A stretch of 64,000 nucleotides of DNA from Escherichia coli. Lineage in GTDB: Bacteria; Pseudomonadota; Gammaproteobacteria; Enterobacterales; Enterobacteriaceae. A program made the position numbers and the translations under genes. This document shows, piece after piece, positions 2,889 through 53,727 of the stretch. The notes beneath the pieces were generated by a model that was not told where the DNA came from, did not search any database, and was given only the letters and a program-made list of their open reading frames with translations. The DNA lies in the NCBI RefSeq assembly GCF_030013595.1, contig NZ_CP122768.1, one strand, 5' to 3'. The stretch's first letter is position 1, and every line of letters begins with the position of its first letter.

Positions 2889-14769
<11,881 letters not shown>

Positions 14770-19906: not shown

Positions 19907-21745
19907 TTATTCATCAATTGCGAATAACAATGCATTCTGGCCGATGGCGTAAACGCGGTGTTTCTCCCCGTTAACGGAAACGCGTTTTGTGTATCGGCGT
20001 TTCCCGTCCGTGTCGCGGTCAACAATCGCGCCAGCATCGTCAAGACTGGCCGCTATGCGTTTCAGGTCGTAGCCGCTGGCCGCCTCACATAGTGCTTCCG
20101 GTAAAAACCAGTAAACCCGCTCGCCGTTGCTCCCCGGTCGCCACCATCCGGCGCGGGTGCTTACTGGTTCGCTGTATGTGCTGCCCCCTTCAAAGCGTGA
20201 AGCATGGCGGGCGATAAACCCCGCGACGGCCCGGAGTATTTTCACGTCCTCCGATTGCCCCCGCCCACGATAGTCCGCCCACGCATCAAACATCGCTTTC
20301 ACTGCCTCCAGTGCTTCGCCCTGTTTCCACGGCAGAATCCCGGCAGTTATCGCCATTTCCCCGGCCAGTGCGCACAGTGTGAAACGCGCGGCGGCGCGTG
20401 CCTCCTGTCCGGTGCTTACGGGGAATTGTTCGCGCAGTATGGCGTACATATCCGCCAGCGTCTGGCCGTTGCTGTCGGTGCTGGTGGTGTCACTTTCATT
20501 GCGGGAAATCAGCCAGCGCACAAACTCCGGCCCGGCGTGGCCGTAATGGGTAGCCGCATTACCGCGCAGTGTTTCGGCAAATTTCCGGCCTGCTCCCCGG
20601 CGTTCTGTGTCGTTGTCGGGGTTGTGGGGTAGTGCCATTCCGTGAAGACAGTCAAATGCCCCGTAAAGCCGCTGTGCCGGAATATCCAGTAACCGCATTT
20701 CCTGCCCGGCCTTGATGCGCTGGCCGCCGCTTTCCATGTGTTTACCCACGGTCATTTCCCCGGTGGAAATAATCATGGTGCGCCATGTGTTGACCGGGCG
20801 GGCCATGCCGGACACCTTGCCACGCTGACGGCCTGTTCCGTTGCCAAGCTGATAAATCAGCCCGCCAATATCTCTGGCCGGGGCTTCGCCAATTTCATCC
20901 AGTATCAGCGCGGTATCGTTCCGCATGGTTGCCAGCCCTTCAAGCCCGGTGCTGGTGGCGTTCCAGTTGCGTTTAAAGTTGCGGGGTTCTCCCCATACGC
21001 TACAGGCCACCAGCGCCCCCACGCTTTTCCCGCTGGAACTGTCGCCCATGAAATGAAATCCGCCGCTGTCCACATCAAGCAACCACAGCAACGGCCCGGC
21101 GAGCGATGCACACACGGCCAGCATGGTTACCGGGTTTCCCCGGCATAATGCGGCCACGTTGTCGCGCCAGCCCTCCGGCGTTCCTGCGGTGGCGTACTCC
21201 TGTGAGCCTGCTTCTGTTGACTGAAACACCACATCACCATCACCGATAACCCCGCCCGGCATGACAAACAGGGCCGGGGAGTGCCACCCGGTGGCCGTGG
21301 CCGCGAGCGCCCGGCGTTTTGGTGCTGACTCCATGATGTATTCAGTCAGTGCCTGCCGTTGTTTGTAGGGAATGGTAACGCCCATGCGTAGCAGTTCCTG
21401 CCGGAGTTCTCCGCCGTCTCCGGCGAGCATTTCCATCGGTGCGGCCCATTCCCGCCACTGGCCTGACGGCGTGAGAAAACGGAGTAATCGCCCGTAGTTT
21501 TCGTCTTTGCTGTCGCTGGTCATGGCGATGACCTCCAGCGGGGAACATATAAACGTGTCTGTGTTGGTTGAGTCGCGCACGCCGTGCCAGTAAAGGCCGG
21601 GTTTCAGTATCTGGCCGCCGTCCACCTGTACATGCTGCGAATAAGTGGCGTAGCCCGGACGCGCCGGGCTGACTTTGGGGTGTTTCTTGCGTGGTGGTTT
21701 TCTCTTCCCGGATGTGACCGGGGTTTTAGTGGTTGTCCGGGTCAT
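19907..21745 (-). CDS. Replicative helicase, P4-alpha-like/SF3-type (612 aa)
   Basis: Walker A (GDSSSGKS) and Walker B (ALILDEIGE) motifs; overlaps primase stop by 20 nt; followed by iteron origin. Confidence 0.75.
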   Translation of the reverse strand: MTRTTTKTPVTSGKRKPPRKKHPKVSPARPGYATYSQHVQVDGGQILKPGLYWHGVRDSTNTDTFICSPLEVIAMTSDSKDENYGRLLRFLTPSGQWREWAAPMEMLAGDGGELRQELLRMGVTIPYKQRQALTEYIMESAPKRRALAATATGWHSPALFVMPGGVIGDGDVVFQSTEAGSQEYATAGTPEGWRDNVAALCRGNPVTMLAVCASLAGPLLWLLDVDSGGFHFMGDSSSGKSVGALVACSVWGEPRNFKRNWNATSTGLEGLATMRNDTALILDEIGEAPARDIGGLIYQLGNGTGRQRGKVSGMARPVNTWRTMIISTGEMTVGKHMESGGQRIKAGQEMRLLDIPAQRLYGAFDCLHGMALPHNPDNDTERRGAGRKFAETLRGNAATHYGHAGPEFVRWLISRNESDTTSTDSNGQTLADMYAILREQFPVSTGQEARAAARFTLCALAGEMAITAGILPWKQGEALEAVKAMFDAWADYRGRGQSEDVKILRAVAGFIARHASRFEGGSTYSEPVSTRAGWWRPGSNGERVYWFLPEALCEAASGYDLKRIAASLDDAGAIVDRDTDGKRRYTKRVSVNGEKHRVYAIGQNALLFAIDE

Positions 21746-22769
21746 GCTCCATTTCCCATAGCATCAAATCGTTAAAGTCGGAAAGGTCTGGTGATGCACC
21801 GGGCGGCCATTCCGGGAATGTGACGTAACACCCGGCCAGCAATGCGGCTTCGTTGGCTGCTCTGGAACCGGGGTTATCTTTTGATGCCCGGTCATCATCC
21901 CCGGCGATAACGAGAGATATGCGCGAGCCGTATCGCTCACGCAGCGCCATAGCCACATGTTTAAGGTTTCCCGCATTCATGGCACACACCACGGCCATGA
22001 CGTTCCAGTACTGGAGAAGGGCGGCCCCGGTGGCCCACCCCTCACACACGTAAACGTCATGTTCCGGCGCTTCCGGGGCCATCAGGTCAAAGCTCCCCAT
22101 AACATGGAAAGCCCCCTGCACCTGACCATCACGGAGAAACATTTTTCGACCGTCCGGGCTGATAATCTGCACGTTCACCACTTCGCCGCATACGTTGTAC
22201 AGCGGGACAAGCAAATCATTACCTGACTGATACAGATTGCCGGGCTGTAGCCGTTTTTTCATGAGATAGGGATGAGAAGGGTTTGCCACCTCCGCCCGGC
22301 CAAGCAACTCAAAGGCCCGGCAGGCGGTCAGTTTCTGGCGCTGGTGGCGCTGTTGCTGTTCCCGCTGGCGGAGTCTGGCCGCCTCCTGTTCTGCGGCCTG
22401 TACCCGCACCCGTTGCGCCTCCCGTTGTTCGCGGGTCATTACATCAGGTTTGCCCAGCGCGGGCAGGCACAGCCCCAGCCTGTCCGCCACAATACGGGCG
22501 GCATCAGTCTGCCGCACATTCCATAAATAAGCCCCCAGCGCCACAAGGTCGCCGCCGCTGTCCCCGGTGGCGAAGTCGTGCCAGCATCCGTCCACCAGCG
22601 AGACGGAAAAACTGCCCGCGTGACGGTCTGCACGCGTGGGGTTACGACACACCCATTCAGTGGCCTGCCGTTTACCTTCGGGCAGCCATTCGGGAACAAG
22701 GATTTCTGCATGTTGTGCCGCCACTGCGGCAACGCTACGGATTGCGTTAATCGTGGCTATGTCACGCAT
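21726..22769 (-). CDS. DNA primase with zinc-binding and TOPRIM domains (about 347 aa from MRDIATIN start)
   Basis: Zn-binding region C..HAGSFSV..GCWHDFATGDSGGDLVALGA; TOPRIM motifs VYVCEGWATG and LVIAGDDD; start chosen at ATG 22769 overlapping upstream stop (ATGCGTGA); longest ORF extends to 22919. Confidence 0.7.
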   Translation of the reverse strand: MRDIATINAIRSVAAVAAQHAEILVPEWLPEGKRQATEWVCRNPTRADRHAGSFSVSLVDGCWHDFATGDSGGDLVALGAYLWNVRQTDAARIVADRLGLCLPALGKPDVMTREQREAQRVRVQAAEQEAARLRQREQQQRHQRQKLTACRAFELLGRAEVANPSHPYLMKKRLQPGNLYQSGNDLLVPLYNVCGEVVNVQIISPDGRKMFLRDGQVQGAFHVMGSFDLMAPEAPEHDVYVCEGWATGAALLQYWNVMAVVCAMNAGNLKHVAMALRERYGSRISLVIAGDDDRASKDNPGSRAANEAALLAGCYVTFPEWPPGASPDLSDFNDLMLWEMEHDPDNH

Positions 22770-23076
22770 GTTGCCCGTCCTCCCTGATTTCCCCGGTGCG
22801 GCAGCGCCAGTTATACGCCTCCACAACCTCACTGAATCCGGCCACAAGTTCAGCCGTAACAGCGATGGAATCGCCCAGGCTGCGTAGTTCATTTGGACCA
22901 AGAGCATTATTGTCGCCAATTACCGAAAGTAGCCGCCCTGTGCCAGCCAGCGCATCAAGCAGTTTGCGGGCGCAGTAATCCGCATCATCAAACATTGCGC
23001 GGGCTTCCTGTGCGTCTGCGTTTTTGATGGCCGCAACCAGTAGTTCAGGTATCCGGGTGTTATACATATCACGCAT
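22762..23076 (-). CDS. Hypothetical small protein (104 aa)
   Basis: ORF MRDMYNTRIPELLVAAIKNADAQEARAMFDD...; start overlaps upstream stop and stop overlaps primase start via identical CATGCGTGA junctions. Confidence 0.5.
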   Translation of the reverse strand: MRDMYNTRIPELLVAAIKNADAQEARAMFDDADYCARKLLDALAGTGRLLSVIGDNNALGPNELRSLGDSIAVTAELVAGFSEVVEAYNWRCRTGEIREDGQHA

Positions 23077-23365
23077 GGCTTACCTCCCCGGCCTGCTGGT
23101 CGTAACACTCCATCAGTTCGGCCATACAGCCAATGAGGGCAGGGGCTGTCTGTAGAAATCCGGCTAACTGGCAGATCTCGTCTCTGGAATAGGTGATGGG
23201 GTTTTCGCGTAACTGGCTTTCCTCCAGTGCCTTACCAACAAAGGCAATCCCCGCAAGTAAATTCACTCTGTGCCAGTCTGCATCAACGCGCAGACTCCAG
23301 CGGCTTTCTTCGTCCGGCATACTGCTCATGGCGGCTTTCATTGACTCACGCAGACAATCACGCAT
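23069..23365 (-). CDS. Hypothetical small protein (98 aa, start at internal Met MRDCLRES)
   Basis: ORF linked to neighbours by the same CATGCGTGA stop/start overlap; longest ORF extends to 23446. Confidence 0.45.
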   Translation of the reverse strand: MRDCLRESMKAAMSSMPDEESRWSLRVDADWHRVNLLAGIAFVGKALEESQLRENPITYSRDEICQLAGFLQTAPALIGCMAELMECYDQQAGEVSHA

Positions 23366-23555
23366 GACGCACCCCCTGAGCCGGAACGCGGCCAGCAAAC
23401 AGCAACACAAAATCACGCGCCAGCATACGGCGGGCGGTTGTTTCATCGGGTGCGTTGACGGATTCGCGGTGTGGGCGGTCGTTCAGGTCGGAACGGCGAA
23501 CAGCCAGAAAGTGAAAGGTAAATTCAGGGTGTAACGGGGTTGGGGTCGTAGCCAT
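23358..23555 (-). CDS. Hypothetical small protein (65 aa)
   Basis: Strong Shine-Dalgarno AAGGAGG 8 nt upstream of ATG at 23555; the longer 201-aa ORF has junk-like composition upstream of this Met. Confidence 0.5.
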   Translation of the reverse strand: MATTPTPLHPEFTFHFLAVRRSDLNDRPHRESVNAPDETTARRMLARDFVLLFAGRVPAQGVRHA

Positions 23556-23582
23556 TCTGGCAGCCTCCTTTTGCAAATTTAA

Positions 23583-23621
23583 GGAGTCACCGCCTGAGTT
23601 CCTACACTCATAAGGGGCGGT
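23583..23621. promoter_or_regulatory. Inverted repeat GTCACCGCC-N21-GGCGGTGAC upstream of the small-gene operon (candidate operator or 5' hairpin)
   Basis: Perfect 9-bp inverted repeat 26-70 nt upstream of the 23555 start codon. Confidence 0.3.
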
Positions 23622-23744
23622 GACGCTGGCAGGGGTAGGAATACCGGCGCAAAAGGAAACCGGCCAGCCTTTCGGCTGCCCCACCAGCGCCACCATAGAT
23701 ACAGTGCGGGTCTTGCCGCTGTGCATGGGTGCGCGATGGCACGA

Positions 23745-23775
23745 CACAAAAAAAGACGCTGGGCGCGTCTGTGTC
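23745..23775 (-). terminator. Rho-independent terminator downstream of alpA
   Basis: Minus-strand agacgcgcccagcgtct hairpin followed by TTTTTTT. Confidence 0.45.
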
Positions 23776-23981
23776 GCCTTTTGCTCATTAAACGGGTTCC
23801 TACGCCCGGCTGGTGGATTTACACCAGCGGGGGAAATATAACGCCCACCAGCGATGGCAGGCAAGCAATATTTGCGGTTGCCGCCCATCCCGTGGGGCGT
23901 GTGGTGGTTGTTTTGGGCGTGAGAACGCCCCGGCCCTGTTACGGGCCTTTCTGGCATTTTCATAATGATTATCGCGGTTGG

Positions 23982-47385: not shown

Positions 47386-49047
47386 TTATTCTACGTTTTC
47401 GGCGACGGGAGTTGTTGAGGTTAAGGGTGAAGTCAATGCCGCCAGCGAGCCGCCAGAAACACCGATTTCATTGAGCAAGGAGTCAATCAGTGGTGCCTGT
47501 GTGCGGTAAGAGAGTGCGGCAGACAATGCCTGTTCTGCCAGGTTTCCGCCACTAACGCTGCCTGATGCTGCATCCCCCGCAGCACCACCTCGGTTTAATC
47601 CATCGACCTGAATAATCTTGATGCCGTCGATAGACTTCATCGGCTCAACGGATTTCTCTATTACTGCAGGTAACGACTGTAATAGCGCCAGTTTGAATTT
47701 AAGGCTGGTTTGTTCATCAGAAAGTACGTTGATAGCGTCGTTCAGCGCACGTTGCGCTTCTGCTTCCGCCAGACCCTTTTTACGCGTAGCTTCGGCTAAC
47801 TCAACGATTGCCGCCGCCTGCATCTCTGCGGCTTCTTTCTCTGCTTTCGCCCGCACGGTCAGTTCAACCGCTTTGGTTTCTGCATCCTGCGCGGCAGCGA
47901 TTAGGGCAACTTGTTTAGCACGATCGGCTTCTGCGGTCTGGCGAGTTGTTTCTACGTTTTGCTGGGCGCTTACCGCTTCTGCAAGTGCAAGGTTGGCACG
48001 CGCTTCCGCTTGTGACTGCTGTTCCGATTTGGCGGCAATAGCGATCGATTTCGTCTGGTTGGCGATTTCGGTGACCTGCTGCTGTTCGATCTCTTTAATG
48101 CGAACTTCACGTTCAGCTTCAACTTTTCTGGAACGGACGGCCTGTTCGCGGTCGATTTCCGTTTCCTGAATCTGTCGTTCAGCCAGAATTCGCGTCTGCT
48201 CTGCTTCCCGACGACGCTCGGCCTCAAAAGCCGCAATTTTCGCATTCTGCTCAGCGGTACGGGTTTTAACCTGCTGCTCCTGCTCAAGCGTCATAAACGC
48301 TTCTTGTTGTTCAATCTCCAGCTTCCGCGAAAGCGCATCACGGTTTTTCTCACGCACCGCAACTTCTACATCCTGTTCAACTTCGTTACGTTCGCGACGA
48401 CGGCGCTCCGTCTCCTGCGTCAGCTTGGTTAAACCTTCGGCGTCAAAGGCGTTGTTAGGATTGAAATGTTCTTTCGACGTCTGGTTAAAGTTGGTAAGTG
48501 AAACGCTTTCCAGTTCCAGGCCGTTTTTCGACAGATCTTCAGCTACGGTATTTTGTACGCCCTGCACGAAGTTCTCGCGGGTATCCTGTAACTCATGCAT
48601 GGTCATTTGTGCAGCTGTTGCACGGAGGGCATCGACAAATTTATCTTCAACCAACATACGTAAGTCTTCAGGCGACAGGGTGCGTTGCCCCAGCGTCTGG
48701 GCGGCGGTGGCAATACCTTCCACTGACGGTTTTACCCGCACAAAGAAAGCGACAACGACATCGACGCGCATACGATCTTTCGTAATCAGGCTATCAATGG
48801 TTGAGCGGCTGACTTCCAGCTTCAGAGTATTCATATTGATGGGGATTATTTCATGAAAGATCGGCATCACGATTGCGCCACCGCTCATTACCACTTTTTG
48901 CCCACCTAAACCAGTACGAACAAAAGCTTGCTCTGCCGAAGCGCGACGATAGAGCCTGGCGAAAATAATTCCAATAATAAACAGAATGCATACGGCAATA
49001 ATCGCGGTAAACATCCAGGAGGGCACAGAATTAACAATATCATCCAT
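47386..49047 (-). CDS. yqiK: Flotillin-like inner-membrane protein YqiK (553 aa)
   Basis: N-terminal TM segment, SPFH/band-7 domain, long Ala/Glu-rich coiled coil. Confidence 0.8.
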   Translation of the reverse strand: MDDIVNSVPSWMFTAIIAVCILFIIGIIFARLYRRASAEQAFVRTGLGGQKVVMSGGAIVMPIFHEIIPINMNTLKLEVSRSTIDSLITKDRMRVDVVVAFFVRVKPSVEGIATAAQTLGQRTLSPEDLRMLVEDKFVDALRATAAQMTMHELQDTRENFVQGVQNTVAEDLSKNGLELESVSLTNFNQTSKEHFNPNNAFDAEGLTKLTQETERRRRERNEVEQDVEVAVREKNRDALSRKLEIEQQEAFMTLEQEQQVKTRTAEQNAKIAAFEAERRREAEQTRILAERQIQETEIDREQAVRSRKVEAEREVRIKEIEQQQVTEIANQTKSIAIAAKSEQQSQAEARANLALAEAVSAQQNVETTRQTAEADRAKQVALIAAAQDAETKAVELTVRAKAEKEAAEMQAAAIVELAEATRKKGLAEAEAQRALNDAINVLSDEQTSLKFKLALLQSLPAVIEKSVEPMKSIDGIKIIQVDGLNRGGAAGDAASGSVSGGNLAEQALSAALSYRTQAPLIDSLLNEIGVSGGSLAALTSPLTSTTPVAENVE

Positions 49048-49073
49048 TATTAAATTTCCTTTTGATTAATAAA

Positions 49074-49703
49074 TTACAATATTTGGGGCCAGGGATTGTT
49101 TTCCGCCAAATATCGCGTTGCAGAAAGTCGGCAAATAATTAACACTTTGTCTCCTTTAGTGAAAATTTTTCCTTCTTCAGGCTCCAGTAGTAAATAATGT
49201 ATTTGGCCAAATTGATCGGTGAGTTTTCCTTCGCAGGGATTACCTGAAGTGGCTTGATGACCGGTAATTAACGCCATGCTACCAATATATTCTTCTTCTG
49301 TAATAGCTGAGCTCTGGTCGCGTGGAATCCAGGGCGCAACTATTTTACCGGTATAATGCACCGCAATAATCGTAAACAGTAAACTGACAGGAACCACAAA
49401 CAGGTTCGAGAGTGGTGATTGCCAGACCATGATGCAGGTATGCTGCAACAGGATGCCAATAAGACCAAAAAAACCAGCCAGTAAGCAAAGAACGACGAGA
49501 GCTGGCAATCTTCCGATATTGAGATAATGAAGTGCCTGGCTAATATGACCTGTGGTTATGGAATCATAATGGTCAAGATGTGCATCAAGTGCACCGGAGA
49601 GCATGTGACCGCAGATAAGCGCAAAAATTTCTAAAAGGCCGATCAACAGTATAAAGGAAATAGCGAAAAGATAAGGGGTGTTATAGTCGGCGAATAAAAT
49701 CAT
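49074..49703 (-). CDS. yqiJ: Inner-membrane protein YqiJ (209 aa)
   Basis: Multi-TM ORF immediately downstream of yqiK. Confidence 0.8.
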
Positions 49704-49971
49704 ATGTCACTCCAATGTCCATTTAGTGACGCAATATTTACTTTAGGATAGTTTCCTTGCTTACATTTATCTTTGTTAATAATAACACATGTTAGAGAAG
49801 TTCTGGAAGAGAAAGTCTTTTAATATGGTTTTTTATTTTTCACTAAAAAGTGTGATCGGGGACAATATATTTACGCACGTTATGTTTAAAGGCACTACAC
49901 TGATTGGGGAATACTGAAATCAGAAAAAGCATATGGCCTTAAAAGGTATGCGATAACCGGAGGATGTGCTT

Positions 49972-50172
49972 ATGGATCATAGTCTTAATTCTTTAAATAA
50001 TTTCGATTTCCTGGCGCGTAGTTTTGCCAGAATGCACGCAGAAGGTCGCCCGGTCGATATTCTGGCCGTTACTGGTAACATGGATGAAGAACATAGAACC
50101 TGGTTTTGCGCACGTTATGCCTGGTATTGCCAACAGATGATGCAAACCAGAGAACTTGAATTAGAACACTGA
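49972..50172 (+). CDS. glgS: Glycogen synthesis/surface composition regulator GlgS (66 aa)
   Basis: [58 protein letters not shown]... Confidence 0.85.
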
Positions 50173-50177
50173 TATTA

Positions 50178-50200
50178 CGGGCCGTCTGGCCCGTTTTTGT
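50178..50200. terminator. Bidirectional hairpin terminator between glgS and ubiK
   Basis: acgggccgtctggcccgt hairpin followed by TTTTT. Confidence 0.5.
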
Positions 50201-50206
50201 GTTGCT

Positions 50207-50506
50207 TTATTCTGCTTTATCAATAGGCGGGATAGCCGGAGGAGATTGAAGATCTGCTACCGAATTATTGCGCGCTTCCAGTTCACTGATGCGCTGCTCC
50301 AGTAACGCCAGTTTTTCACGAGTCCGTAACAGGACTTGCGTCTGAACGTCGAATTCTTCGCGGCTTACCAGATCGAGACGCGTCAGCTGCGCTTGTAGGG
50401 TTTGGCGGATTTTTTTCTCCACATCTTCCCCGAACTCCCTGATTCCTTTAGGCATTGATTCGTGAACCTGGCGAGCGATTTGCTCAATTTTTTTCGGGTC
50501 AATCAT
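50207..50506 (-). CDS. ubiK: Ubiquinone biosynthesis accessory factor UbiK/YqiC (about 99 aa from MIDPKKIEQ start)
   Basis: BMFP-family coiled-coil protein; start chosen at internal Met. Confidence 0.7.
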
Positions 50507-50629
50507 TGTAGTTTCCCTGTACTGATAGGTGTTGAGTGCCATTGTAGTGCGATAAGGGTAAGTCATAAACCAGAATTATGTGAAGCTATGCGTTGCTGCC
50601 GCTAATCATTAGCGTTATAGTGAATCCGC

Positions 50630-50780
50630 TTATTCTCAGGGCGGGGCGAAATTCCCCACCGGCGGTAAATCAACTCAGTTGAAAGCCCGCGAGCGCTTTG
50701 GGTGCGAACTCAAAGGACAGCAGATCCGGTGTAATTCCGGGGCCGACGGTTAGAGTCCGGATGGGAGAGAGTAACGATTC
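50630..50780 (+). ncRNA. FMN riboswitch (RFN element) in the ribB leader
   Basis: Conserved RFN segments AGGGCGGGGCGAAATTCCCCACCGGCGGTAAA ... GGTGTAATTCCGGGGCCGACGGTTAGAGTCCGGATGGGAGAGAGTAACG upstream of ribB. Confidence 0.75.
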
Positions 50781-50879
50781 TGTCGGGCATGGACCCGCTC
50801 ACGTTATTTTGGCTATATGCCGCCACTCCTAAGACTGCCCTGATTCTGGTAACCATAATTTTAGTGAGGTTTTTTTACC

Positions 50880-51533
50880 ATGAATCAGACGCTACTTTCC
50901 TCTTTTGGTACGCCTTTCGAACGTGTTGAAAATGCACTGGCTGCGCTGCGTGAAGGACGCGGTGTAATGGTGCTTGATGATGAAGACCGTGAAAACGAAG
51001 GCGATATGATCTTCCCGGCAGAAACCATGACCGTTGAGCAGATGGCGCTAACCATTCGCCACGGTAGCGGTATTGTTTGCCTGTGCATTACTGAAGATCG
51101 CCGTAAACAACTCGATCTGCCAATGATGGTAGAAAATAACACCAGCGCCTATGGCACCGGTTTTACCGTGACCATTGAAGCAGCTGAAGGTGTGACTACC
51201 GGTGTTTCTGCCGCTGACCGTATTACGACCGTTCGCGCAGCGATTGCCGATGGCGCAAAACCTTCTGATCTGAATCGCCCGGGCCACGTTTTCCCACTTC
51301 GTGCTCAGGCTGGTGGTGTACTGACGCGTGGCGGCCATACTGAAGCGACTATTGATCTGATGACGCTGGCAGGCTTTAAACCGGCTGGTGTGCTGTGTGA
51401 GCTGACTAATGACGATGGCACGATGGCGCGTGCACCAGAGTGCATTGAGTTTGCCAATAAACACAATATGGCGCTCGTGACTATTGAAGACCTGGTGGCA
51501 TACCGTCAGGCACATGAGCGTAAAGCCAGCTGA
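50880..51533 (+). CDS. ribB: 3,4-dihydroxy-2-butanone 4-phosphate synthase RibB (217 aa)
   Basis: [45 protein letters not shown]... Confidence 0.9.
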
Positions 51534-51572
51534 AAATCGCTGCTTAATTTACTGTCTTAATCAAGAAACCGA

Positions 51573-51601
51573 AGTTGTAGCTGGCTTCGGTTTTTATTTT
51601 G
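51573..51601 (+). terminator. Rho-independent terminator of ribB
   Basis: aaaccgaagttgtagctggcttcggttttta hairpin plus T-tract. Confidence 0.5.
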
Positions 51602-51770
51602 CCCTGCTATGCAAGATGTTAATTCCGCTTCTCTTTCTATGAGAAAATTTCATTAATATCAGGCATTCTTTTTCATTATGATCAAAATCATATAATTGTT
51701 CCGTTATTATGCGACCATATGAATATATCCGAAAAAGGATATGTGAAATTTATGCGCTAAATGTTTAGTA

Positions 51771-51965
51771 TTGTTAAATATTAAGGGTAAAAGGATGTTT
51801 ATCGCCTGGTACTGGATTGTATTGATTGCTCTGGTTGTGGTGGGTTATTTCCTGCATTTGAAACGTTATTGTCGGGCGTTTCGCCAGGACAGAGACGCAC
51901 TGCTTGAAGCACGGAACAAATACTTAAACAGTACGAGAGAAGAGACAGCCGAAAAGGTAGAATAA
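51771..51965 (+). CDS. Small single-pass membrane protein (64 aa; start uncertain)
   Basis: ORF with one hydrophobic helix (FIAWYWIVLIALVVVGYFL) and basic C-terminus; not firmly identified. Confidence 0.3.
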   Translation: MLNIKGKRMFIAWYWIVLIALVVVGYFLHLKRYCRAFRQDRDALLEARNKYLNSTREETAEKVE

Positions 51966-52022
51966 GGCGTTAGTGAAGCTGGCAGAAGTTGTCCATGCGC
52001 TGGACAACTTCTGATGTTGCTT

Positions 52023-52796
52023 TTAACCAATTCCCGCCGTTTGTAGCAGCACTAAACTGAATCCCATCACTGACATTCCACATAGTACGCCATAGCTGGG
52101 GTTATTATTAGGGTCAATCTCTTTGGCGAGCGGCATTAATTCATCAACCGAGAGCGCCACCATAATTCCTGCAACCGCCGCCATGATTGCCGCCATGACC
52201 ACCGGGGAAATCATGCTACCGAGGATTAACCACGCCAGCACACCACCAAGAATTTCTGCCAATCCAGAAATCCCCGCCCAAAGAATCGCGGTGCGTTTAG
52301 AACCCGTTGCTGCATAAACCGGGCCTGCAACCGCCAGACCTTCAGGGATATTGTGCAACGCGACGGCCAGTGCGATGCCAAATCCCAGCTCCAGGTTGCT
52401 GCTCGCAGTGACAAAGGTGGCAATCCCTTCCGGGAAGTTATGCAGACTGATGCCGAGAGTGAGCAGAATGGCTGTGCGCTTGATCGATTTTGGCAACGGC
52501 TGCACCGATTTTTGCATTAAATCCTGCGGATGCGCATGTGGCAACATGCGGTCCAGGCCAAAATAGCCAAGCAGACCGAAGATAAACATTCCATAACCCA
52601 ACACAGGCGACATTCCTTCGGCGGCTAGTGCGGCAGGAAGCATTTCCATTAATGAGATGAGCAACATGATCCCCGCCGCAAATCCTAGCGAAAACGCCAG
52701 TAAGCGGTTCGAGGGTTTTTGCCCGAGAACGCCGAGAAACGCGCCAATAAACGTGGCTGCCCCCGCCAGTATGGTCAGAATGAGAGGTACTGACAT
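52023..52796 (-). CDS. zupT: Zinc transporter ZupT (257 aa)
   Basis: [25 protein letters not shown]... ZIP family; start at internal Met of the longer ORF. Confidence 0.85.
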
Positions 52797-52911
52797 CGAC
52801 AACTCCTTATAAATCTTCACCTTCAGGCAGATCGTCAAAATAACTGATGATCATCATCATTGTTATCCGGGTTCTTACTCCGCCGAACAAGCGTATTGTG
52901 AGGATATCAAA

Positions 52912-53727
52912 ATGACACCTTTAGTTAAGGATATCATCATGTCTTCAACACGTATGCCAGCATTGTTTTTAGGTCACGGTAGTCCGATGAACGTGCTGGA
53001 AGATAATTTGTATACCCGCAGCTGGCAGAAGTTGGGGATGACATTGCCACGCCCGCAAGCGATTGTGGTGGTTTCGGCTCATTGGTTTACCCGTGGAACA
53101 GGAGTGACCGCGATGGAGACGCCGCCCACGATTCATGATTTTGGTGGCTTCCCGCAGGCGCTGTACGACACCCATTATCCGGCTCCTGGATCACCGGCTT
53201 TGGCTCAGCGATTGGTTGAGCTGTTAGCGCCAGTACCTGTCACACTGGATAAAGAAGCCTGGGGCTTTGACCACGGTTCCTGGGGCGTGCTGATTAAGAT
53301 GTATCCTGACGCGGATATCCCGATGGTGCAGTTGAGTATCGACAGTAGCAAACCCGCCGCCTTGCATTTCGAAATGGGGCGCAAACTGGCAGCGCTGCGG
53401 GATGAAGGAATAATGTTGGTCGCCAGCGGTAACGTGGTGCATAACCTGCGTACGGTGAAGTGGCACGGTGATAGTTCACCGTATCCTTGGGCGATGTCGT
53501 TTAATGAGTATGTGGAAGCGAATCTGACGTGGCAAGGGCCGGTAGAGCAGCATCCTCTGGTGAATTATCTCGACCATGAAGGTGGCGCGTTATCTAACCC
53601 AACGCCAGAGCACTATCTGCCGTTGTTGTATGTGTTAGGTGCGTGGGATGGGCAGGAGCCAATTACCATTCCGGTCGATGGTATAGAAATGGGCAGTTTA
53701 AGTATGTTGTCGGTGCAGATAGGCTAA
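52912..53727 (+). CDS. ygiD: Extradiol-type 4,5-DOPA dioxygenase family protein YgiD (271 aa)
   Basis: LigB-family aromatic ring-opening dioxygenase motifs (LFLGHGSPMN...). Confidence 0.8.
   Translation: MTPLVKDIIMSSTRMPALFLGHGSPMNVLEDNLYTRSWQKLGMTLPRPQAIVVVSAHWFTRGTGVTAMETPPTIHDFGGFPQALYDTHYPAPGSPALAQRLVELLAPVPVTLDKEAWGFDHGSWGVLIKMYPDADIPMVQLSIDSSKPAALHFEMGRKLAALRDEGIMLVASGNVVHNLRTVKWHGDSSPYPWAMSFNEYVEANLTWQGPVEQHPLVNYLDHEGGALSNPTPEHYLPLLYVLGAWDGQEPITIPVDGIEMGSLSMLSVQIG

Follow-up and report, generated by a model that had tools for sequence, protein, structure and literature searches.

The ribB leader in the stretch of Escherichia coli DNA analysed here (64,000 nt; hereafter, the window) almost certainly contains the E. 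coli ribB FMN riboswitch, a cis-acting OFF switch within a 252-nt leader that would combine translational repression with Rho-dependent termination. This riboswitch is already known in detail, and nothing new about it emerged from the window. It is a textbook element that automatic annotation marks in essentially every E. coli genome, and it serves here as a positive control, in that it was read from raw sequence with an accuracy of 4 nt. Aptamer identity, covariation, the lack of an intrinsic terminator in the leader, the alternative pairings and their energies, and the phylogenetic conservation were all computed in this study.

Based on a cmscan search of 5 kb of the window (48000-53000) against all 4227 families of Rfam 15, we identified a single strong match, RF00050 (FMN riboswitch), at 50628-50776 on the + strand, with a score of 120.9 bits (gathering score, 66.2 bits) and E = 8.6e-29. 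When the whole window was scanned with gathering thresholds, the same match was recovered with E = 1.1e-27. The match covered positions 1-138 of the 138 model positions and was not truncated, and 27 of the 28 consensus base pairs were canonical in the window sequence. All consensus helices of the six-stem junction, P1 to P6, were present, with P1 closing. The PGAP feature 'riboswitch / FMN riboswitch' occupied exactly the same interval (3069-3217 of an identical E. coli record).

50628-50776, + strand: FMN riboswitch aptamer (RF00050), RNA nt 1-149, from the covariance-model match and the PGAP feature
50630-50637 with 50767-50774, + strand: P1, nt 3-10 with nt 140-147, from the aptamer consensus

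A sequence-only reading had placed an FMN riboswitch at 50630-50780 in the ribB leader and had called it a known element. The Rfam scan, which that reading had itself named as its check, returned the RF00050 match rather than no hit, and the assignment is upheld by the full length of this match, by a TIGR00506 ribB gene downstream and by the RefSeq annotation; the proposed coordinates were 2-4 nt off those of the match. The designation as a known element was equally correct, as the element is annotated in RefSeq E. coli and its leader is 100% identical to the published K-12 sequence. The reading omitted the expression platform (50777-50888), and the functional element runs approximately 110 nt past the coordinates it gave. 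Two other kinds of candidate in the aptamer region were rejected: an AdoCbl-II match at 50706-50774, inside the FMN aptamer, which stayed below threshold (22.3 bits; gathering score, 36.5; E 0.11), and small ORFs of 44-48 aa over the aptamer on either strand, which were taken as mechanical artefacts of ORF listing.

The leader was numbered according to Eschbach et al. 2024 (PMC11571811), the window position being 50627 plus the nucleotide number. Under this numbering, C175, G176 and U181 of PMC11571811 correspond to 50802 (C), 50803 (G) and 50808 (U), with agreement in base identity, and the ribB AUG starts at nt 253, leaving a 5' leader of 252 nt. The segment 50560-50879, containing promoter and leader, was 100% identical to that of K-12 MG1655, with zero mismatches, and for this reason the leader experiments performed in K-12 apply to the window without qualification. 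The first difference of the window from K-12 was at 51002, and all 13 substitutions in ribB lay at or beyond this position. The promoter-leader segment (341 nt) was detected in 5425 of 5426 complete E. coli genomes, in 5390 of them with at least 99% identity, and the RefSeq label under the E. coli matches was 'riboswitch | ribB'. In one E. coli genome, a second copy of the leader was observed on a plasmid.

50593-50621, + strand: putative sigma-70 promoter, TTGCTG (50593-50598), 17-nt spacer and TATAGT (50616-50621), found by eye
50880-51533, + strand: ribB coding sequence, 217 aa, the regulated gene, from the ORF, TIGR00506 and the annotation
51564-51602, + strand: ribB intrinsic terminator, 13-bp stem (AGAAACCGAAGUU / GGCUUCGGUUUUU) with a U-rich tail, from folding

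The position of the putative promoter suits a transcription start at 50628, the probable +1 implied by the published numbering. Its hexamers match the consensus at 8 of 12 positions, which is below the threshold of the sigma-70 scan and explains why the scan did not report it; the single promoter-like site that was reported lies at 51653-51682. The protein encoded downstream was identified as RibB (3,4-dihydroxy-2-butanone-4-phosphate synthase) by TIGR00506 (287.7 bits; cut-off, 177.45), and its gene starts 103 nt from the end of the aptamer on the same (+) strand. The terminator of ribB was missed by a simple terminator scan. A match to STnc240 at 51532-51602 was rejected, as it scored 27 bits against a gathering score of 55 and rested largely on the ribB terminator hairpin and its U tail. 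Downstream of this terminator is the small ORF yqiD (51795-51965, +; 56 aa according to PGAP), convergent with zupT.

Upstream of the leader lies the divergent ubiK (50207-50506, -), with glgS (49966-50172) before it. The gap between these two genes (50173-50206) is approximately 35 bp, as it is in the O157:H7 strain PV15-279; K-12 MG1655 carries there a fimbrial cluster of approximately 6.6 kb, ygiL-yqiG(IS2-disrupted)-yqiH-yqiI. Given this short distance, the window genome lacks the chaperone-usher operon at this site. Several further features of the window were recorded. A SIB RNA (RF00113; 47013-47162, +; 139.4 bits), the sole SIB copy above the gathering score in the window, is located beside yqiK (47386-49047, -), corresponding in position to the sibD/ibsD type I toxin-antitoxin locus of K-12. 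A P4-like integrative island at approximately 21000-26800 (-) encodes an integrase, an HTH regulator and Icd-like, toprim and DUF927 proteins, together with two RNAs recognized by Rfam, a C4 antisense RNA (23613-23700) and isrK (23749-23828). The island adjoins a tRNA with a CAU anticodon (26713-26788), assigned to Met by ARAGORN and to tRNA-Ile by PGAP and hence ileX-like, which is followed by mug and rpoD. Just 17 of 5426 E. coli genomes contained at least 80% of the region 21000-27500, porcine ETEC strains being the best matches.

We then analysed the expression platform between the aptamer and the first codons of ribB. The following segments are involved.

50636-50644, + strand: 5' aptamer segment UCAGGGCGG (nt 9-17), the predicted anti-P1 partner, a 9-bp complement to 50835-50843
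50768-50776, + strand: 3' strand of P1 plus 2 nt, AGAGUAACG (nt 141-149), with 50802-50810 as alternative partner (anti*-P1)
50802-50810, + strand: CGUUAUUUU (nt 175-183), 3' strand of anti*-P1 and first pause region, from the MFE fold and PMC11571811
50837-50846, + strand: switch strand GCCCUGAUUC (nt 210-219), predicted to pair with the aptamer 5' core (ON) or with ribB codons 2-3 (OFF)
50840-50888, + strand: sequestering hairpin (nt 213-261), from constrained, free and platform-only folds

The sequestering hairpin appeared in aptamer-enforced, free and platform-only folds alike. Its outer stem is formed by 50840-50852 (CUGAUUCUGGUAA) and 50875-50888 (UUACCA-U-GAAUCAG), with U254 bulged; the AUG (50880-50882) is located within this outer stem, while the Shine-Dalgarno (SD) sequence GUGAGG (50864-50869) is located in a weak inner stem. 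The energy of the hairpin was -14.4 kcal/mol, a stability reached by none of 500 shuffled sequences. Once nt 208-216 were occupied, its energy dropped to -6.3 kcal/mol. These nucleotides (50835-50843, CUGCCCUGA) can form with UCAGGGCGG a duplex of 9 bp and -17.9 kcal/mol, compared with -8.7 kcal/mol for P1 and -7.3 kcal/mol for anti*-P1, and in doing so would take four nucleotides out of the sequestering stem. The pairing of 50636-50644 with 50835-50843 probably corresponds to the published 'anti-P1', the exact pairs being those predicted by complementarity. The switch strand GCCCUGAUUC is complementary both to UCAGGGC of the aptamer 5' core and to AUG-AAUCAG of ribB. Taken together, a helix containing the SD and AUG, with a 5' strand that overlaps the anti-P1 partner at 50835-50843, is what characterizes a translational, SD/AUG-sequestering platform. 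The platform thus appears to be a three-way switch among the switch strand, the aptamer core and ribB codons 2-3.

Unconstrained minimum free energy (MFE) folding of the whole leader did not recover the aptamer, and the resulting fold was no more stable than those of shuffled sequences (z = -0.66). As this fold misses the aptamer, thermodynamic folding alone gives the model no support; such a failure is expected as normal behaviour of a junction stabilized by its ligand and by tertiary contacts. Constrained folds were employed for the leader, the unconstrained fold being uninformative on the aptamer. Nevertheless, anti*-P1 arose spontaneously in the unconstrained MFE fold, in the form of the stem between 141-149 and 175-183 that was proposed and mutated in PMC11571811. 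When anti-P1 was imposed on the model, the sequestering stem still retained 9 bp across the AUG, and the ON state is for this reason only partly explained by the pairings given here. The authors of PMC11571811 likewise acknowledge that the structures of the platform are not fully resolved. These weak points, namely, the MFE fold, the 9 bp retained in the ON model and the incompletely resolved platform, leave the identity of the element untouched.

The leader was compared with those of relatives in an alignment of 14 leaders from Enterobacteriaceae and Erwiniaceae, in which the junction core was invariant across the 14 genera and species. The OFF structure, consisting of the aptamer and the sequestering hairpin, was paired in 96.8% of cells, compared with 41-53% in slid controls with partners shifted by 1-3 columns. 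Seven pairs of the OFF structure were changed on both sides (26 cells), all of them within the variable hairpin extensions of two aptamer stems, while the core stems never varied. The covariation score was 0.122, compared with 0.059 in shuffles, and none of 500 shuffles attained it; 3 of 500 attained the number of doubly changed pairs. The RF00050 match might in principle be a functionless chance or decayed resemblance, but this reading is vanishingly improbable, being refuted by the E value of 8.6e-29 over the full model, the near-identity of the segment across E. coli, the covariation across genera and the identity of the sequence to an experimentally validated one.

With respect to the regulatory helices, the sequestering stem was pairable in 100% of cells, with 12 of 13 pairs never varying; anti-P1 was pairable in 99.2% of cells and anti*-P1 was paired in 95.2%. 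The ON helices were pairable in 95.8% and showed little variation. No variation at all was seen in the 7 proximal pairs of the sequestering stem or in the 7 bp at the core of anti-P1. As these helices are almost invariant, covariation in close relatives says nothing for or against the sequestering stem or anti-P1. In this set, the regulatory helices are backed by conservation, not by covariation, and the invariant pairs by conservation and co-occurrence. A small variable hairpin was observed at alignment columns ~201-217 (window ~50811-50824), between anti*-P1 and the conserved ACUCCUAAG block; E. coli has GGCUAUAUGCC here, Citrobacter and Enterobacter have GCCGCUUAGACGG-like sequences, and the hairpin looks dispensable, as it is wholly deleted in two Enterobacter-like species.

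More distant leaders were collected by scanning species-representative genomes with a DNA pattern containing the conserved 3' core of the aptamer, which yielded at least 120 loci. Among the matches listed, 48 were followed on the same strand by a RibB homologue, which lay within approximately 250 nt of the aptamer in 40 of these 48. The motif GCCCTGRTTC followed by RTGAATCAG was present in 33 of 41 ribB-linked leaders, a set that includes the window's own leader, compared with 3 of 79 other FMN-riboswitch loci among the matches listed; the chance expectation of the first motif is approximately 0.0006 per leader (330 nt). The taxa with the motif pair among these matches included Escherichia, Yersinia, Photorhabdus, Providencia, Vibrio, Shewanella and alphaproteobacteria, and the pair was also detected in a Desulfobulbaceae MAG and a Chlorobiaceae MAG. 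In the distant leaders, the distal part of the sequestering stem showed compensatory variants (UGGUAA/UUACCA, UGGUU/AACCA, CUG/CAG and CGUAA/UUAUG). The aptamer core, the switch strand and ribB codons 2-3 (Asn-Gln) are frozen, because the switch strand must complement both of the others. The same switch motifs were observed with an FMN riboswitch and ribB on a 25-kb plasmid, pMJ3, of the symbiont Candidatus Enterovibrio escacola. Such an SD-sequestor platform for proteobacterial ribB was reportedly described by Vitreschak et al. in 2002.

Attenuation as in Bacillus subtilis ribD, where FMN lets an intrinsic terminator hairpin form, is very unlikely for this leader. It is generally known as the classic mechanism of Firmicutes members of RF00050, with which PMC11571811 contrasts E. 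coli, and the window does have a run of seven U residues (50870-50876) inside the sequestering hairpin. However, this run does not follow a GC-rich stem: it is flanked by the inner stem on one side and by the 3' strand of the outer stem on the other, and the hairpin itself ends within the ribB ORF. A consensus terminator scan of the interval from the aptamer to the AUG (50777-50880, +) gave no intrinsic-terminator-like site, and on this ground a platform of the Bacillus ribD type can be excluded. In addition, the switch motif was absent in 75 of the 79 non-ribB loci among the matches listed, indicating that the ribB platform is of a different kind.

FMN binding, repression, Rho dependence and pausing at the window leader are taken from published work on the identical sequence. 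In PMC11571811, FMN shielded P1 and the sequestering stem against RNase H in nascent transcripts, the protection of 215-227 being FMN-dependent, and structural switching occurred with a Kswitch of ~57-104 nM FMN. Sensing was limited to the transcriptional window between the pauses at 175/181 and at 247-249, and mutants of anti*-P1 acted as predicted. The same study found repression of translation initiation by the riboswitch together with a Rho-mediated decrease in mRNA, and it reported that FMN exposes the region 184-193, for which a role in Rho recruitment was suggested.

Within 50802-50810, + strand: first pause region, C175 (50802) and U181 (50808), from PMC11571811
50874-50876, + strand: second pause region, nt 247-249, just 5' of the AUG, mapped from PMC11571811
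50818-50847, + strand: candidate rut region, nt 191-220, with 12 C and 5 G, from the composition profile

The tract at nt 191-220 has the highest excess of C over G in the leader and adjoins the FMN-exposed region 184-193 of PMC11571811; the putative rut site is this C-rich tract at 50818-50847. In PMC5499598, ribB had a Rho termination score of 3.1 by ChIP, its transcriptional control was lost in the rho R66S mutant, and it was classed with mgtA among the leaders that expose a rut site directly.

A purely translational riboswitch would hide the SD and AUG upon FMN binding, with the drop in mRNA following passively, through degradation or termination of the untranslated message, and without direct exposure of a rut site. 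Indeed, no feature of the platform is clearer or more conserved than the hairpin sequestering the SD and AUG, Rho termination at thiM follows indirectly from the inhibition of translation (PMC5499598), and the C-rich tract at ribB is a rut candidate by its composition, which by itself does not define a rut site. Against this, ribB is placed in the 'direct' class, with Hollands 2012 cited for direct riboswitch control of Rho at ribB in PMC5499598 and PMC11571811. Moreover, in a single-molecule study with a minimal system, Rho termination at the ribB leader was modulated by ligand in vitro, with ribocil-C and with no ribosomes present (PMC10085680). We consider the purely translational reading unlikely, and the dual mode of translational repression and Rho termination is retained in the model below.

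In the proposed mechanism, transcription would start at approximately 50628, and the first 149 nt would fold into the six-helix FMN aptamer. At low FMN, P1 would be unlocked: UCAGGGCGG (nt 9-17) would pair with CUGCCCUGA (nt 208-216) as anti-P1, and the 3' strand of P1 with CGUUAUUUU (nt 175-183) as anti*-P1. Through these two pairings, the hairpin covering the ribosome-binding site would lose its four outermost base pairs (nt 213-216 with 258-261), and the opened hairpin would allow ribosome loading and the production of RibB. When FMN is bound within the window of transcription bounded by the pauses, P1 would form and the switch strand would be freed. The freed CUGAUUCUGGUAA would then pair with UUACCA-U-GAAUCAG, burying the AUG and holding the Shine-Dalgarno sequence in the hairpin, and initiation would be blocked. 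The untranslated leader, with its C-rich tract exposed, would allow Rho to terminate in the platform, 5' of the ribB coding sequence; because transcription would end before the coding sequence, the mRNA level would fall too.

The terminated ribB leader RNA has been catalogued as SroG, and a plasmid with the ribB riboswitch bears the name 'sroG'. The block ACUCCUAAGnnnGCCCUGAUUCUGGUAAC of the platform was near-invariant across the aligned Enterobacteriaceae and Erwiniaceae, and this conservation seems to exceed what the cis pairings strictly need. In Listeria and Enterococcus, some leaders terminated at SAM and B12 riboswitches have been shown to act in trans. It is conceivable, though a long shot, that the FMN-terminated leader (approximately the first 150-250 nt, from 50628 onward) likewise has a trans-acting role, as a small regulatory RNA or as a sponge. 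If so, SroG would accumulate under abundant flavin and would be more than a by-product of attenuation.

RibB catalyses the first committed step in one branch of riboflavin synthesis, and the riboswitch sets flavin homeostasis. Roseoflavin and ribocil, two antibacterial leads, target the FMN riboswitch. The ribB leader is, in addition, a model for riboswitch-controlled Rho-dependent termination and for ligand sensing bounded by pauses.

Finally, we compared the element with known systems. The closest is the ribB FMN riboswitch/SroG leader of E. coli K-12, which was studied by Bastet in 2017 and Eschbach in 2024 and, reportedly, by Hollands in 2012 and Pedrolli in 2015. It has the same leader, gene and positions of P1, anti*-P1 and the sequestering stem, and differs from the window outside the element, in the 13 substitutions of ribB and in the ygiL-yqiGHI cluster, which the window lacks. 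The Bacillus subtilis ribD (ribDG) riboswitch belongs to the same RF00050 family, with the same ligand and OFF logic, and is also located upstream of a riboflavin biosynthesis gene; however, its platform uses an intrinsic terminator/antiterminator under kinetic control (PMC11571811), whereas that of the window would use SD/AUG sequestration and Rho. The Mg2+ leader of Salmonella mgtA and the E. coli thiM, thiC and lysC leaders resemble ribB in that a ligand-set RNA conformation decides Rho termination in the leader or early ORF, and in having regulatory pauses near the start codon (PMC5499598, PMC5234074, PMC10085680), but they carry other aptamers and respond to other ligands. Among them, thiM engages Rho indirectly via translation, in contrast to ribB, which belongs to the class with direct rut exposure (PMC5499598).
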